Of a stretch of DNA of 37,368 nt, positions 5,397 to 12,674 are shown piece by piece. Each line of letters starts with the position of its first letter. Positions within the stretch are counted from its first letter, which is position 1. The DNA is taken from the IMG/VR virus record IMGVR_UViG_3300005662_008223, positions 1-37,368 of that record; one strand, written 5' to 3'. The DNA is from a virus (Duplodnaviria; Caudoviricetes). The position numbers and the translations under genes are program-made. The notes below the pieces were generated by a model. That model was not told where the DNA came from, did not search any database, and worked only from the letters and a program-made list of their open reading frames with translations.

Positions 5397-5897
5397 TTAT
5401 CTGTTTCTAGAGCTTTCTACAAATATAAAGCTTTGTTTTTTAAGATCTAATTGTGTATTTATTGTAGCCCTCGTGTTTAAAGTAGGCATTTGTACGATTA
5501 CATCAATATCATAAGTGTGTGTTTCAGGATCAGCAATTACATTTACTTTAATTAGTTTTACTCTAGGTTCATATTCTTGTATAGCTCTAGAAATACGTTC
5601 TCCTAAGGTCTGGCCATTGTAATCCGTGCATGGTTCAAATAAAAATTCGTAGAAATCTAATCCATATTCCGGAAAGAGAAACCTCTGTCCTCTCTTAGTA
5701 TTAAACAGATTTCTTAAAGAATTACGAATCGCAAGCTCATCTAAAGAAACTTTTATGTCATTTGTTTCTATTTTTTTTTCTAAAACATGGCTGTAATTAC
5801 CATCTATAGTCAGATCTAAATGTAAATCTTTATAGATATAATCTTTAATTGAATATTCTTCAGAGATTTGTTTGAGCTCTGTTATGTGAATTGCCAT
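5397..5897 (-). CDS. gp25: Baseplate wedge subunit / sheath initiator, T4 gp25-like
   Basis: YKDLHLDL, AIRNSLRNLFNTKRGQRFLFPEYG, LFEP, IQEYEPRV match the GPW_gp25 family. Confidence 0.93.
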   Translation of the reverse strand: MAIHITELKQISEEYSIKDYIYKDLHLDLTIDGNYSHVLEKKIETNDIKVSLDELAIRNSLRNLFNTKRGQRFLFPEYGLDFYEFLFEPCTDYNGQTLGERISRAIQEYEPRVKLIKVNVIADPETHTYDIDVIVQMPTLNTRATINTQLDLKKQSFIFVESSRNR

Positions 5898-7975: not shown

Positions 7976-9634
7976 ATGACTAAAGACAACCATTATTGGC
8001 TAAACAAAGATTCACGTAAGTTTCTCGAACGTGGATATTTGTTAGAGGGTGAAACTGCCGAACAGCGAATTGAAGATATTGCTCAAACTGCTGAGGATTA
8101 TTTAAAAATTCCAGGCTTTGCTAAAAAGTTTGCAGATTATATGGCATTAGGATTTTTTTCCTTGTCATCTCCTATTTGGAGTAATTTTGGAAGAAAGCGC
8201 GGACTTCCAATTTCTTGCTTTGGTTCTTTTATTTCCGATACAATGGAATCAATTTTACATAAAGTTTCCGAAGTCGGTATTATGACAAAACACGGAGGTG
8301 GTACATCAGCTTATTTTGGAGCGATAAGAGGAAGGGGCACGCCGATTTCTTGTGGAGGGGAATCAACAGGCTCTGTTCATTTTATGGAACTTTATAATAA
8401 GCTAATGAATGTTGTTTCACAAGGGAATGTGCGTAGAGGTTCATTTGCTGCTTATCTTCCTATTGATCATAAAGACATTGAAGAATTTCTCGAGATTCGT
8501 TCGGAAGGACACGACATTCAAGAAATGTCTTTTGCTGTTTGCGTTTCAGATCAGTGGATGAAAGAAATGGTTGAAGGAGATAAAGAAAAGCGAAAGATTT
8601 GGTCTAAAGTTATTAGAAAGCGTTTTGAATCTGGATATCCATATATTATGTTTTCAGATACAGTTAATAATAACGCTCCTCAAATTTATAAAGATAAAGG
8701 AATAAAAATTCACAACTCAAATCTTTGCAGCGAGATTGCACTTTCTAATGATGAAGAAGAATCATTTGTGTGTGATCTTTCTTCGTTAAATCTAGAGCGT
8801 TGGGACGAATTAAAAGATACAGACGCTATAGAAACTTTGGTTTGCTTTCTTGATGCTGTAATGACAGAATTTATCAATAAGACTGAAGGGATGCAATTTA
8901 TGGAAGCCCCTCGTAAGTTTGCTATTAATCAAAGAGCTCTTGGCGTCGGAGTGTTAGGATGGCATTCCTTGCTTCAATCAAAAACAATTGCTTTCGAATC
9001 ATTTGAAGCAAAATTGCTTAATGTAGAAATTTGGAAAACCATACGAGAACGAGCTGATAAAGCTACAGAAGAATTATCTAAAGCTTACGGAAAAGCTCCT
9101 ATTTACGAAGGTAGCAAATACAATCGTCGCAACGTAACTACGTTAGCTGTTGCTCCAACGACTTCCTCTAGTTTTATTTTAGGACAAGTTTCACAATCCA
9201 TTGAGCCTTTAAATTCAAATTATTATGTTAAAGATTTAGCAAAAGGAAAATTTACATATAAGAATCCTTATCTTAAACATCTGCTTAAACAAAAAGATAA
9301 AGATGATGATGATACATGGAAATCTGTTCTTGAACATGGCGGATCCGTTCAACACTTAGAATTCCTTTCAGAAAACGAAAAAGATGTGTTTAAAACATTT
9401 GCAGAAATTTCTCAAAAAGAGATTGTAATACAAGCAGCCCAACGACAAAAATACATTGATCAAGCTCAAAGTCTTAATGTTATGGTTCCTCATGATGCTA
9501 AACCAAAAGATGTCAACGAACTGCTAATTTTTGGTTGGGAACAAGGAATTAAAACATTTTATTATCAACGCAGCTCAAATCCAGCTCAAAAATTAGCTCG
9601 TACTATTCTAACTTGCAAATCATGTGAAGCTTAG
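7976..9634 (+). CDS. nrdA: Ribonucleotide reductase class I alpha subunit, short form without ATP cone (NrdAi-like)
   Basis: LPISCF, SNLCSEI (N-C-E catalytic residues), APTTSSS, DQAQSLN, KTFYYQR tyrosine dyad, C-terminal CKSCE. Confidence 0.96.
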   Translation: MTKDNHYWLNKDSRKFLERGYLLEGETAEQRIEDIAQTAEDYLKIPGFAKKFADYMALGFFSLSSPIWSNFGRKRGLPISCFGSFISDTMESILHKVSEVGIMTKHGGGTSAYFGAIRGRGTPISCGGESTGSVHFMELYNKLMNVVSQGNVRRGSFAAYLPIDHKDIEEFLEIRSEGHDIQEMSFAVCVSDQWMKEMVEGDKEKRKIWSKVIRKRFESGYPYIMFSDTVNNNAPQIYKDKGIKIHNSNLCSEIALSNDEEESFVCDLSSLNLERWDELKDTDAIETLVCFLDAVMTEFINKTEGMQFMEAPRKFAINQRALGVGVLGWHSLLQSKTIAFESFEAKLLNVEIWKTIRERADKATEELSKAYGKAPIYEGSKYNRRNVTTLAVAPTTSSSFILGQVSQSIEPLNSNYYVKDLAKGKFTYKNPYLKHLLKQKDKDDDDTWKSVLEHGGSVQHLEFLSENEKDVFKTFAEISQKEIVIQAAQRQKYIDQAQSLNVMVPHDAKPKDVNELLIFGWEQGIKTFYYQRSSNPAQKLARTILTCKSCEA

Positions 9635-9676
9635 AATAGTTGACCGGCTTTAATTTATTAATAATTAAAATTTGAA

Positions 9677-9715
9677 ACACACACAATTGGTTTCTTAGAA
9701 AGGACACACACAATT
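9677..9715 (+). repeat. 12-bp direct repeat ACACACACAATT flanking the ribosome-binding site
   Basis: Exact copies at 9677-9688 and 9704-9715, enclosing GAAAGG; the second copy abuts the ATG at 9716. Confidence 0.85.
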
Positions 9716-9940
9716 ATGCCAAAAAATGCTTACGAAATTCGTTTAGACGTTCTTCAAATGGCTCACACAGATGAAAATATGAGATTCCTCGAAAACCTCA
9801 ATAATCATCGCACGTATGATGCAAGAGGACATATGATTAATCCTTCAGAAGAAGTAATTAATTCTCTTTTTCCGAAGACCTCTGATATCATTAAACGAGC
9901 AGAAGAACTATATGCTTTTGTTGAAGACAAAGGTCTTTAA
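9716..9940 (+). CDS. Small helical phage protein (NAYEIRLDVLQMA...DIIKRAEELYAFV type), function unknown
   Basis: 74-aa ORF with an SD-like GAAAGGA and its own terminator; the motif pair resembles small proteins I recall from environmental T4-like phages. Confidence 0.8.
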   Translation: MPKNAYEIRLDVLQMAHTDENMRFLENLNNHRTYDARGHMINPSEEVINSLFPKTSDIIKRAEELYAFVEDKGL

Positions 9941-9978
9941 TTGAGTCGAACCCTGTCTTGATGTGGAATCAAGACTAC

Positions 9979-10027
9979 AAACTCTCTCTAGGCTACCAAC
10001 TTAGAGAGAGTTTTTTTTTGTTTTTTT
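9979..10027 (+). terminator. Rho-independent terminator
   Basis: Stem AAACTCTCTCTA (9979-9990) / TAGAGAGAGTTT (10002-10013) followed by a long T tract. Confidence 0.9.
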
Positions 10028-10052
10028 GTTGAAAAAAATTATCTATAAAAGA

Positions 10053-10058
10053 TAAATA
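10053..10058 (+). promoter_or_regulatory. Late-promoter-like box TAAATA upstream of hsp20
   Basis: GATAAATAAA directly downstream of the terminator and 5 nt before the left inverted-repeat arm. Confidence 0.6.
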
Positions 10059-10102
10059 AATTCGTAGTGCTCAACAAGACTACAAACAAAAACAACATAT
10101 AA

Positions 10103-10119
10103 CTCGCTTATTAAAGGAG
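10103..10119 (+). promoter_or_regulatory. ROSE-like RNA thermometer hairpin occluding the hsp20 Shine-Dalgarno sequence
   Basis: CUC-G-CUU (10103-10109) pairs with AAGGAG (10114-10119) with G10106 bulged; contains the ROSE consensus U(U/C)GCU; upstream of a small heat-shock gene. Confidence 0.7.
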
Positions 10120-10128
10120 AAAAAACAT

Positions 10129-10623
10129 ATGACAACATTAATAACAGCATCACCAACAACATTAACACCTGGACATTATTCGTCCACAGAGAGAGTACTT
10201 CGCCAGCTACCTGCTCTGTTCAACGACAGCTGGCTTGAAGGAGCGTTTGATAAAATTGATCGAGCGTTCGACGTGCCTGGAGCGGTTTATCCGTACAACG
10301 TCAAGGCCGTAAACGACTCAGCAGGAGAACTCACTGAATATATCATTGAGGTTGCTTTAGCTGGTGTCGGTAAAAATAACATTGATATTAAAGTCCGAGA
10401 AGGATATTTGTATATTGATGTTCTAACGGAACAAGCGGAAGAAGATGAAAGTACTTCTTTCCTTAAAAGAGGCATTAGCAAAAGAAAAGGACAATTGTCT
10501 TTTCTGCTAAATCAAAATGCAAACAAGAAAAAAATTACTTCAAGTTACATTGACGGATTATTGCGAGTAGTCGTTCCTGTAACTAAACCAGAAGTATTAA
10601 ACATTACAGTCAAGGTTGACTGA
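10129..10623 (+). CDS. hsp20: Small heat-shock protein (Hsp20 / alpha-crystallin family)
   Basis: YPYNV, YIIEVALAG, FLKRGISKR, YIDGLLRVVVP; AAGGAG SD. Confidence 0.93.
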   Translation: MTTLITASPTTLTPGHYSSTERVLRQLPALFNDSWLEGAFDKIDRAFDVPGAVYPYNVKAVNDSAGELTEYIIEVALAGVGKNNIDIKVREGYLYIDVLTEQAEEDESTSFLKRGISKRKGQLSFLLNQNANKKKITSSYIDGLLRVVVPVTKPEVLNITVKVD

Positions 10624-10661
10624 ATGAAATAACCCTTGTTGAGCACTACTTCTTTTTTAAG

Positions 10662-12674
10662 TTACCTACTAACCTCTTCCCAATCTACTGATGCAAAAAT
10701 TTCTTGAGCATTAGTGTCGCTAGCAACTACTAAAGTTAGTTCGTATGGCATTTGAGTTAATCCGTTTCTTTCTAGCTGAAATTTAAACAAAGCATCTTTT
10801 AATAAATTAGTTGTAGGAGACCCTTGATTAGAAGAATTTAAAAATCCAGCAGCTACAGTTCTTCCACTACTAAATCCTGTTCCTGTAATGTTATATTCTA
10901 CAGCACTTATATTATCAGCACTTATCCAACTTCCACCGGATGTTACTCCTGAAGCTTTTATTTGCCAATTATAGTTAATTCCGTTTCCTATTCCCATTAT
11001 AGACAACGCAGTAAGAATTACTATAGCATCCAATCTATCAGGAGAAGTTTTTAATCTTAACGAAATTATTGGATAAAATGTGCCAGCTACAGCTAATACT
11101 TTAGGAGTTTGTATAGGTGTTCCTATTGCTTGCTGAAGACCTCTAAGTTCATAGCCTCCTTCAGAAATCACAGTAGAGCAAACTTGCTTCATTACTCTTG
11201 AGCCATTTGTTGCATTTTTATTAGTAATTTCCTGTCTTAATGGTAAAGACGCTGTAGTAATATATGTTGAATCTATTTTATTTGCATGATGAAACGAATG
11301 ACATACGATAAATTGTCCGTTAATAACAAAGCCAATTCTCACTGTTCCCAAACCAAGCCACTCAATATCCATCCAAAGAATTTGTGCCTTTGTGATATCA
11401 AGAGTCAAACCAGATGGTCCTGTTCCGTTTAATTTATCTCCATTCCAAGCAGATAAAGGAACAATAGTTTCAGTCACAGGAAGACCATTAACTAAACTAC
11501 GTTTTACAAAGCTGATTTGACCATCATCTAACTGCAAATAAATTCCATTAGTTTGTCCAAAATAACCAACTCTTTGTCTTAAGTTTACAGCAGAAGGAGC
11601 CATCACAAAAGTAGTCAACACTTCCATCGATTTTCCGGGTTGATAACTAAAAACTTTTGTTGTTTCTCTGATAACTGAAGAGCCAGATAAATTATTTACA
11701 GACATTTCAATCAATCCTTGATTTGAATTAAAAAAAACAGACCCTCCATTTGCTGTTAAAGAAGACCAAAGATTGTTGTCATGATACCTATGCGAAGAAT
11801 CAAATATAGTAAGAGGCTGAGAAATTCTTAAACGTCCGAATGCATCAACGTTTGGTGTATTAGCAAAAGTAATTGGAAAACCAACTAGAGGATCAACAGT
11901 TGCAACTATAGAATTCGTAACATTAACATTTAATGAAGATGTTGCAGGAACTACACTTACGTTATTATCATTGAGATCTTTGATTGCAACGGAGTTAAGT
12001 ATATTAACAGCCGTAACGGGATTAGTCACTTCAACTGCAGTAACAGGGTTTAGTACATATACTGCAGTTAATTGATTTAATGCTGACAGTTGATTTAACA
12101 TGTTTAAACTACTTAACGCGTCATGAGCCTCACTCCACTGAATTGAGTTTCCTTCTAGGGCATATATCGTTCCAGTAGAACGTATATTTCCAGCAACAGT
12201 TAATGCGTCTGTTGGATTTTCTGTATTAATTCCAACAAACTCTGACTGCACAAATAATGTCGTTGGAAGGGTTTCCATACCCATCAAAACATCTCCATGC
12301 AAGGCTGCATTTCCCATTACAGTTAATGCTTCCGCTGGATCCTCTGTATTAATTCCGACTCTATTTTGTTCAACAAATAAAGTAGCGTAATTTTCTTCAG
12401 TTCCAATAGTTACATCACTACTAAGAGTAGTTGTGCCAGAGACTTGAAGATTGCCTGTAATAGTTCCTCCAGACAACGGAAGATATGGCATGTCTAAAAG
12501 CGGGCCACCTAAACCCCAAGAACCGGAATTAGAACTTACTGTCGTATACACGCTTTGCCAGTTTTCTGGATATAAGTTGCCAGCACTAATACTGTTAACA
12601 GTAACGCTATTAAATATGGGATTATCTGTTATATCTAAATCTTGAGGTACTCCAAAAGTAATTCTTGAACTCAT
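10662..12674 (-). CDS. Virion structural / fibre-like protein
   Basis: Two VGINTE(D/N)P...ALTVxGN shaft repeats, TNPVTAV repeats, and a C-terminal domain beginning DAFGRLRISQPLTIFDS of a type seen in environmental phage virion proteins. Confidence 0.65.
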   Translation of the reverse strand: MSSRITFGVPQDLDITDNPIFNSVTVNSISAGNLYPENWQSVYTTVSSNSGSWGLGGPLLDMPYLPLSGGTITGNLQVSGTTTLSSDVTIGTEENYATLFVEQNRVGINTEDPAEALTVMGNAALHGDVLMGMETLPTTLFVQSEFVGINTENPTDALTVAGNIRSTGTIYALEGNSIQWSEAHDALSSLNMLNQLSALNQLTAVYVLNPVTAVEVTNPVTAVNILNSVAIKDLNDNNVSVVPATSSLNVNVTNSIVATVDPLVGFPITFANTPNVDAFGRLRISQPLTIFDSSHRYHDNNLWSSLTANGGSVFFNSNQGLIEMSVNNLSGSSVIRETTKVFSYQPGKSMEVLTTFVMAPSAVNLRQRVGYFGQTNGIYLQLDDGQISFVKRSLVNGLPVTETIVPLSAWNGDKLNGTGPSGLTLDITKAQILWMDIEWLGLGTVRIGFVINGQFIVCHSFHHANKIDSTYITTASLPLRQEITNKNATNGSRVMKQVCSTVISEGGYELRGLQQAIGTPIQTPKVLAVAGTFYPIISLRLKTSPDRLDAIVILTALSIMGIGNGINYNWQIKASGVTSGGSWISADNISAVEYNITGTGFSSGRTVAAGFLNSSNQGSPTTNLLKDALFKFQLERNGLTQMPYELTLVVASDTNAQEIFASVDWEEVSR

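Follow-up and report, generated by a model that had tools for sequence, protein, structure and literature searches.

To our knowledge, only a handful of bacterial mRNAs are established cases of pairing between the two ends of a message, and most of the evidence comes from mutants in a single species. In the hbs message of B. subtilis, a 14-bp pairing between the 5′ and 3′ untranslated regions (UTRs) is reported to stabilize an mRNA of less than 600 nucleotides (nt), as judged from compensatory mutants (PMC5737220). In hok, as described in PMC9841398, a metastable 5′ hairpin of the nascent RNA gives way to a 5′/3′ stem in the stable full-length mRNA; this closure keeps the SD sequence sequestered until 3′ processing opens it, in a system that comprises an antisense RNA and a toxin. 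Elements of other kinds are also relevant here. ROSE-like thermometers are defined by a U(U/C)GCU sequence that pairs with the SD sequence and leaves a G bulged (PMC11342760). Intrinsic terminators consist of a local GC-rich, short-loop hairpin and a U-rich tract of 7 to 9 nt at the base of its stem. For such terminators, the upstream arm is reported to be replaceable by an antisense oligonucleotide, with release of the RNA in vitro (PMC3351154), and terminators lacking a U-tract are described as inactive even with mycobacterial polymerase (PMC3993855). Finally, Fremin et al. 2023 (PMC10690425) listed 19 candidate viral structures located at most 25 bp upstream of HSP20 genes.

The phage hsp20 locus analyzed here resembles hbs in that UTR-UTR pairing is backed by compensatory change, in this case natural covariation rather than engineered mutants. 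Unlike in hbs, which is a single-gene case, the pairing covaries across a clade and begins at the predicted transcription start (+1), and its stem competes with a conserved 5′ hairpin and occupies the slot in which relatives carry a terminator. As with the tac and fbi structures of hok, a 5′ hairpin is replaced by a 5′/3′ stem; for the phage message, this replacement is a prediction, with both folds conserved, and the encoded protein is a chaperone instead of a toxin. With ROSE thermometers, as described in PMC11342760, PMC11182007, and PMC4166951, the leader shares two hairpins and a UCGCU sequence that pairs with the SD sequence with a bulged G, but it differs from the elements described there: a bulged G is present in hairpin 1 as well, and the 3′ end of the message captures this hairpin. 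The stem of this locus is directly followed by a U-run, as in the intrinsic terminators of PMC3993855, and its upstream arm is supplied separately, as in the oligonucleotide-mediated termination of PMC3351154; unlike in these terminators, this arm belongs to the same RNA, at a distance of 556 nt, and the U-run is absent in most relatives. The leader type itself has probably already been catalogued by Fremin et al. 2023 (PMC10690425), whose table is one of upstream structures only and shows no 3′ partner in its HSP20 rows. We found no description of 5′/3′ pairing at a phage hsp20 in the literature searched, which consisted largely of papers accessible without subscription.

The hsp20 locus and its complementary arms

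The locus lies in a stretch of 37,368 nt (referred to here as the window) comprising positions 1 to 37,368 of the virus record IMGVR_UViG_3300005662_008223, which is estimated to be 18% complete. With genes for a gp25 baseplate protein, a gp44-like clamp loader, and ribonucleotide reductase, it belongs to a T4-like phage. The sequencing runs that contain this phage are mainly from freshwater, its NrdA is ∼60% identical to those of phages of unrelated hosts, and the cultured-phage matches are 13 distant cyanophage records with 25 to 28% identity. The hsp20 gene (10129 to 10623, plus strand) encodes a 164-amino-acid protein of the alpha-crystallin family (PF00011; E value, 2.3e-13). Downstream lies a convergent gene for a 670-amino-acid protein (10662 to 12674, minus strand) with no Pfam match, whose stop codon is 12 nt past the 3′ arm described below; upstream, a terminator-like hairpin with a T-run (9979 to 10022, plus strand), called from the sequence, would insulate hsp20 against transcription from upstream. 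Among the four RNA runs examined (of five), two metatranscriptome runs yielded contigs that span hsp20 from position 10120 onward with few differences at most, and positions 9976 to 10069 are uncovered, such contigs giving presence in the library and neither ends nor levels. Contigs of one run end at 10644, inside the arm, and those of another continue at low coverage to ∼10727, although contigs cannot map ends.

Between nrdA and hsp20, we observed a conserved open reading frame (ORF) of 74 amino acids (9716 to 9940) with no Pfam match, whose leader contains ACACACA runs and whose homologs (42 to 78% identity) are found upstream of hsp20 in 25 related loci. The terminator of this ORF (9943 to 10022 in the window) keeps the loop GGCTACCAAC in 11 loci, with a covarying stem, and GAGTCGAACCC is located just 5′ of it in most of those loci. 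On the minus strand, both sequences resemble what we take to be the D-loop and T-loop words of a tRNA, in tRNA order; ARAGORN found no tRNA at this terminator.

A TAAATA box (10053 to 10058, plus strand), which we take to be a promoter of the T4 late type, lies 5 nt ahead of the left arm, as the sequence-only reading of this locus had pointed out. Boxes of the form TAA(A/G)TA are found 4 to 7 nt ahead of the ATG in 10 of the 33 ORFs of the window, against an expectation of ∼0.13 (ORF starts at 5897, 17116, 18596, 22413, 26640, 30989, 31827, 34289, and 35681 on the minus strand and 5963 on the plus strand). Given that these boxes adjoin the ATG and that an SD-like word precedes only 5 of the 33 ORFs, many genes of the phage look leaderless; hsp20, with its 65-nt leader and strong SD sequence, is an exception to this pattern. 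The apparently leaderless genes imply a +1 about 5 to 6 nt after the box, and G10064 is thus the predicted +1 of hsp20.

This G is also the first base of the 5′ arm, GTAGTGCTCAACAAG (10064 to 10078, plus strand), which was recovered by an inverted-repeat search and is, as claimed earlier, the exact reverse complement of the 3′ arm (10635 to 10649, plus strand), with hsp20 enclosed in the 556 nt between them. The 3′ arm complements the 5′ strand and the loop of a local hairpin at the 5′ end (hairpin 1) and is directly followed by the U-rich tail TTCTTTTTT (10650 to 10658, plus strand). The statement that no local hairpin accompanies this tail also held, as the trailer (10621 to 10665) folds to 0 kcal/mol and no plus-strand terminator was called in it. 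Perfect inverted repeats of at least 15 bp occur five times in the window, the other four being spaced by 4.7 to 25 kb, so that repeat length alone is not decisive. However, the perfect match between leader and trailer measures 15 bp at hsp20 and at most 9 bp at the other 32 of the 33 ORFs, and a chance origin of the arms is very unlikely because they are conserved with compensatory change in relatives. The long-range stem is present in both the MFE and the centroid fold of the predicted window mRNA. A CIRCE/HrcA operator, a motif with a 9-nt spacer, was ruled out by the 556-nt spacing and the variable arms, and Rfam searches over positions 9500 to 10800 and on the leader returned nothing at gathering level.

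Covariation of the message ends in related phages

To collect related hsp20 loci, we started from a first viral scan, whose 19 hsp20 loci were the basis of a search alignment, and scans with this alignment yielded 59 viral and 80 metagenome loci. The 140 rows examined consisted of the window, the 59 viral loci, 79 metagenome loci (the remaining one, identical to the window, was excluded), and 1 locus from a pattern scan. Removal of 35 duplicates, 7 rows with a short 5′ flank, 9 with a short 3′ flank, and 2 with no ATG left 87 distinct loci. Bacterial genomes gave no cellular member of this clade and only 2 weak partial matches.

The arm class is defined by a duplex between leader and trailer with an energy of −26.9 kcal/mol or stronger, which 68 of the 87 loci have and 19 (referred to here as arm-less) lack. 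This cutoff is also passed by 8 of 65 outgroup hsp20 loci, showing that energy alone separates the classes poorly; a perfect run of at least 10 bp separates them better (56/68 arm, 0/19 arm-less, and 1/65 outgroup loci). The long-range anchor pair occurs in the whole-mRNA MFE fold of all 68 arm loci, where the duplex measures 15 to 32 bp (median, 27) and its longest uninterrupted run 9 to 17 bp (median, 13). A one-base bulge in the 3′ strand, 1 to 3 bp from the outer end, is found in 33 of 63 loci, and the window carries the short (15 bp), bulge-free form of the duplex.

For the covariation analysis, the bulged G served as the anchor for the columns, and registers were chosen for maximal pairing. 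The eight core columns contain, among 544 cells, 510 Watson-Crick pairs, 23 G-U pairs, 5 A-C combinations, and 6 others. Cognate arms pair at a fraction of 0.94, versus 0.71 for partners shuffled among loci (maximum of 0.76 in 2,000 shuffles), and parsimony on a quick tree gives ∼36 same-branch double changes over nine columns; all these figures lean high, since the registers were fitted to pairing and the loci are related. A neutral local alignment, which runs into AT-rich flanks, gave a weaker signal (106 G-U versus 72 A-C). In 45 of the 52 arm loci with a late-type box, the duplex's outer G-C pair comes 5 to 6 nt past this box, which places the end of the duplex at the predicted +1; the remaining arm loci have a TATAAT-like box (11 loci) or no box (5 loci). 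The sequence-only reading had proposed an RNA-level stem between the ends of the message, to be sought as covarying complementarity at related hsp20 loci, and the duplex found in 68 of 87 loci, together with the folding and the position of its end, bears this out. We consider it almost certain that the ends of the hsp20 mRNA pair as RNA.

The arm is limited to one clade. Among 119 loci returned by a leader scan for the GTGCTC core, 33 were distinct and complete hsp20 loci; the arm is present in all 8 of those in the clade and absent from all 25 of those outside it, showing that it is specific to the clade and not a by-product of the leader sequence. Presence versus absence of the arm corresponds to a single change on the quick tree, on a branch with weak support. 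Compared with synonymous shuffles, folding of the coding region has a median z score of −4.4 in arm loci (16 of 68 loci), −2.7 in arm-less loci (11 of 19), and −1.8 in the outgroup (14 of 65); these values, from 12 shuffles per locus and among related sequences, are no more than suggestive.

The closest comparison is with the arm-less locus L155, which shares its upstream ORF, its NrdA, and its convergent downstream gene with the window, with 81% identity in NrdA and 77% in the downstream gene. The neighbors of the window's hsp20 are those found in arm-less phages, and an arm-type hsp20 amid them suggests that the whole cassette from promoter to trailer was exchanged.

Alternative folds of the leader and the terminator slot

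Hairpin 1 (10064 to 10083, plus strand; bulged G10069) is the predicted nascent, open fold of the 5′ end, which the 3′ arm would displace. It folds locally at −3.0 kcal/mol and excludes the long-range stem, in agreement with what had been read from the sequence. The five pairs nearest the bulge are paired in 67 to 68 of the 68 arm loci, and the hairpin and its bulged G are kept in arm, arm-less, and outgroup loci alike; the bulged G belonged to the search pattern, whereas the pairing of hairpin 1 did not. Its median energy is −6.3 kcal/mol in arm loci versus −8.9 in arm-less and −9.4 in outgroup loci. Given that the 5′ arm also forms this conserved but weakened hairpin, a switch from an open nascent to a closed RNA is likely. 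In the window model at 37°C, hairpin 1 has a probability of 0.97 in the absence of the trailer and of 0 in its presence, and the predicted long-range stem keeps a probability above 0.9 up to 80°C, so that the clamp itself is not predicted to be a thermometer.

We observed that the SD sequence and its hairpin are lost at 18 of the 19 arm-less hsp20 genes, which have retained the bulged-G hairpin 1 (loci L152, L154, L155, L157, L160, L162, L165, L171, L179, L192, L216, L223, L242, L246, L231, L234, L235, and L240). This retention hints at a separate role for hairpin 1.

The SD hairpin, or hairpin 2 (10103 to 10119, plus strand), folds as CUC-G-CUU/AAG-GAG: UCGCU (10104 to 10108) pairs with AAGGAG and leaves G10106 bulged, as the ROSE-like motif does, and the leader's two hairpins before a small heat shock gene are within the two to four of ROSE-like leaders. 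The alignment to ROSE_3 (RF02523) scored 10.1 bits (E value, 4.6), far below the Rfam gathering threshold of 43. Between the two hairpins lies an A/C-rich single-stranded spacer (10084 to 10102, plus strand), predicted to be ∼0.96 unpaired at 37°C whether the 3′ arm is present or not, which is a possible ribosome standby site. The SD hairpin motif is found in 67 of the 68 arm loci versus 1 of the 19 arm-less ones. An estimated ∼3,900 viral stretches carry the motif, and in 103 of 120 sampled viral loci (L021 to L140) the two-hairpin bulged-G leader precedes an hsp20-like ORF, making this leader a control element that is widespread among large phages; several of the remaining sampled loci have short unrelated ORFs behind the same leader.

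The sequence-only reading had also considered a switch coupled to the thermometer, and this direct coupling finds no support in the folding. Unlike in hok, closure leaves the SD hairpin untouched in the folding models: the duplex stops 4 to 41 nt before the anti-SD sequence in every one of the 68 arm loci, the distance in the window being 24 nt, and the predicted unpairing of the window SD sequence at 37°C is 0.39 with the arm and 0.45 without it. Opening of the SD sequence is almost nil up to 50°C in the model, which omits noncanonical pairs.

Arms and local terminators exclude each other. Local terminators of −12 kcal/mol or stronger are missing from all 68 arm loci but occur in 15 of the 19 arm-less and 29 of the 65 outgroup loci, and in L155 the terminator stem and U-run align to the arm and U-run of the window. 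Since loss or gain of the arm is one change on the tree, both this exclusion and the link between arm and SD hairpin represent approximately one event; the arm, the SD hairpin, and the loss of the terminator all fall on about one branch, and the link is not independent evidence.

Four arm-less and terminator-less hsp20 loci carry a nearly invariant element of ∼95 nt after the hsp20 stop codon (L231, 858 to 955; L234, 1699 to 1796; L235, 1400 to 1497; and L240, 1672 to 1769), which is also found in L233. Its predicted fold has several stems, the last hairpin being covarying with a GGAGA loop. It had no Rfam match, and a 19-mer from it had no exact match in viral contigs. This element could be a riboswitch- or ribozyme-like RNA.

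Possible roles of the proposed closed message

Of the roles that the sequence-only reading had proposed, protection of the ends fits best, and our tentative preference, held at somewhat less than even confidence, is that an end-to-end clamp of the mRNA replaces the terminator stem as end protector. Transcription would start at G10064, and folding would begin with hairpin 1, which is weak, and with the ROSE-like SD hairpin. As the trailer emerges, its first bases would pair with the loop of hairpin 1 and then displace this hairpin up to the +1, leaving a stem with a short U-rich overhang in which the +1 is paired and 3′ trimming is blocked. The 3′ end would be set by release at the U-run, which is likely possible in the window, and, where relatives lack a U-run, by trimming as far as the stem. 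The outcome would be a long-lived message whose closed loop likely shields both ends, with translation gated separately by the SD hairpin upon heating; in this phage, the closed loop may also stop transcription. The arm-less relatives speak against the clamp, given that they protect both ends by a simple terminator plus hairpin 1, which leaves the retention of a switchable design unexplained by protection alone.

Protection has to be weighed against termination itself, that is, a split intrinsic terminator in which the 5′ end of the mRNA serves as the upstream arm of the stem and the RNA is released at the U-run if hairpin 1 can be invaded, a step that could be gated by a ribosome at the stop codon, by heat, or by a bound protein. 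As a general account we regard this as rather unlikely, with higher confidence for the window than for the family. In the window it is plausible: 8 of the 9 nt directly at the stem base are U, in the slot of the L155 terminator, and release with a separately supplied upstream arm in vitro (PMC3351154) makes such a split feasible. The consistent absence of local terminators from arm loci fits as well, as do the proximity of the pairing to the gene (starting at most 5 nt from the stop codon in 45 of 68 loci) and the U bias of the tails (265 T versus 173 A; on average 4.1 T in 8 nt, versus 2.4 in downstream background sequence, some of it coding). Family-wide the idea does not fit, since at least 5 U in the 8 nt after the stem are found in only 27 of 68 arm loci, compared with 13 of 15 true terminators, and a U-tract is reported to be needed (PMC3993855). 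Neither the window nor any of the 68 arm loci has the local GC-rich short-loop hairpin of a standard terminator, strong tails are not more common before convergent genes (5/17) than before co-oriented ones (21/41, by a crude orientation call), and a 556-nt loop would have to close within a short pause. A promoter-like box lies 3′ of the arm in 24 of 68 loci, and of the 30 loci with an ORF starting at most 26 nt from the arm, 16 have no box of its own for that ORF, implying read-through past the arm. The more specific proposal of a gene-spanning terminator, with the first 15 nt of the message as an upstream arm 556 nt away and translation or heat deciding on stopping, is unlikely in our estimation; such gating is suggested by a trailer whose pairing begins immediately after the stop codon and has to break into a bulged-G hairpin. 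If it were true, the state of a thermometer at the 5′ end would control transcription beyond hsp20.

The remaining readings treat the duplex as a target, a switch, or a DNA element. RNase III processes the stems of rRNA precursors from longer transcripts, and closure of the hsp20 mRNA could likewise make a double-stranded substrate whose cutting would take off the 5′ end and start decay, or free the hsp20 mRNA from a longer transcript; the median duplex of 27 bp (range, 15 to 32) and the tRNA genes or co-oriented ORFs close downstream in many loci agree with this. We nevertheless find it improbable, as the uninterrupted runs are short (9 to 17 bp; median, 13), a bulge interrupts 33 of 63 duplexes, the window stem has just 15 bp, and the stem ends at the predicted +1 instead of flanking a product. 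A translational switch, in which closure would remove a protein-binding bulged-G hairpin (e.g., one for Hsp20) or hide a standby site, so that nascent and finished mRNAs would be translated differently, seems quite unlikely, although slightly less so than processing by RNase III. It would account for the conservation of the hairpin 1 bulged-G pattern in all three groups and for duplexes that end 4 to 9 nt before the anti-SD sequence in many loci, and there are parallels in IbpA, reported to repress its own 5′ UTR (PMC10474464), and in the metastable 5′ hairpin and 5′/3′ stem of hok (PMC9841398). But the duplex never pairs the anti-SD or SD sequence, the 24-nt spacer of the window stays open, SD unpairing hardly changes, and the co-occurrence of arm and SD hairpin (67/68 versus 1/19), which at first favors a switch, is about one evolutionary event. 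Finally, the perfect inverted repeat formed by the window arms could point to a DNA-level element, either an invertible segment or a pair of protein-binding sites. The sequence-only reading had judged inversion less likely, partly for want of a recombinase in the window, and we consider any DNA-level element highly improbable. The arms of relatives are bulged and vary in sequence, so that exact DNA repeats are not conserved, and their excess of G-U pairs on the sense strand, together with the bulges, argues for an RNA rather than a DNA element. Furthermore, the complementarity stops at the predicted +1, the contigs of four DNA runs contain no strand-changing joint (contigs drop rare variants), one contig, which may come from the source sample, spans both arms in the orientation of the window, and no recombinase is among the Pfam matches of the 33 ORFs in this 18% complete record.

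Whether the end-to-end clamp or another of these roles applies, this phage clade offers a naturally covarying series of paired message ends, whose sister loci carry an ordinary terminator at the corresponding position. Two questions thus become directly testable: whether a 5′/3′ stem can stand in for a terminator, be it to protect the ends or to terminate transcription, and what purpose the second bulged-G hairpin serves in phage hsp20 leaders.
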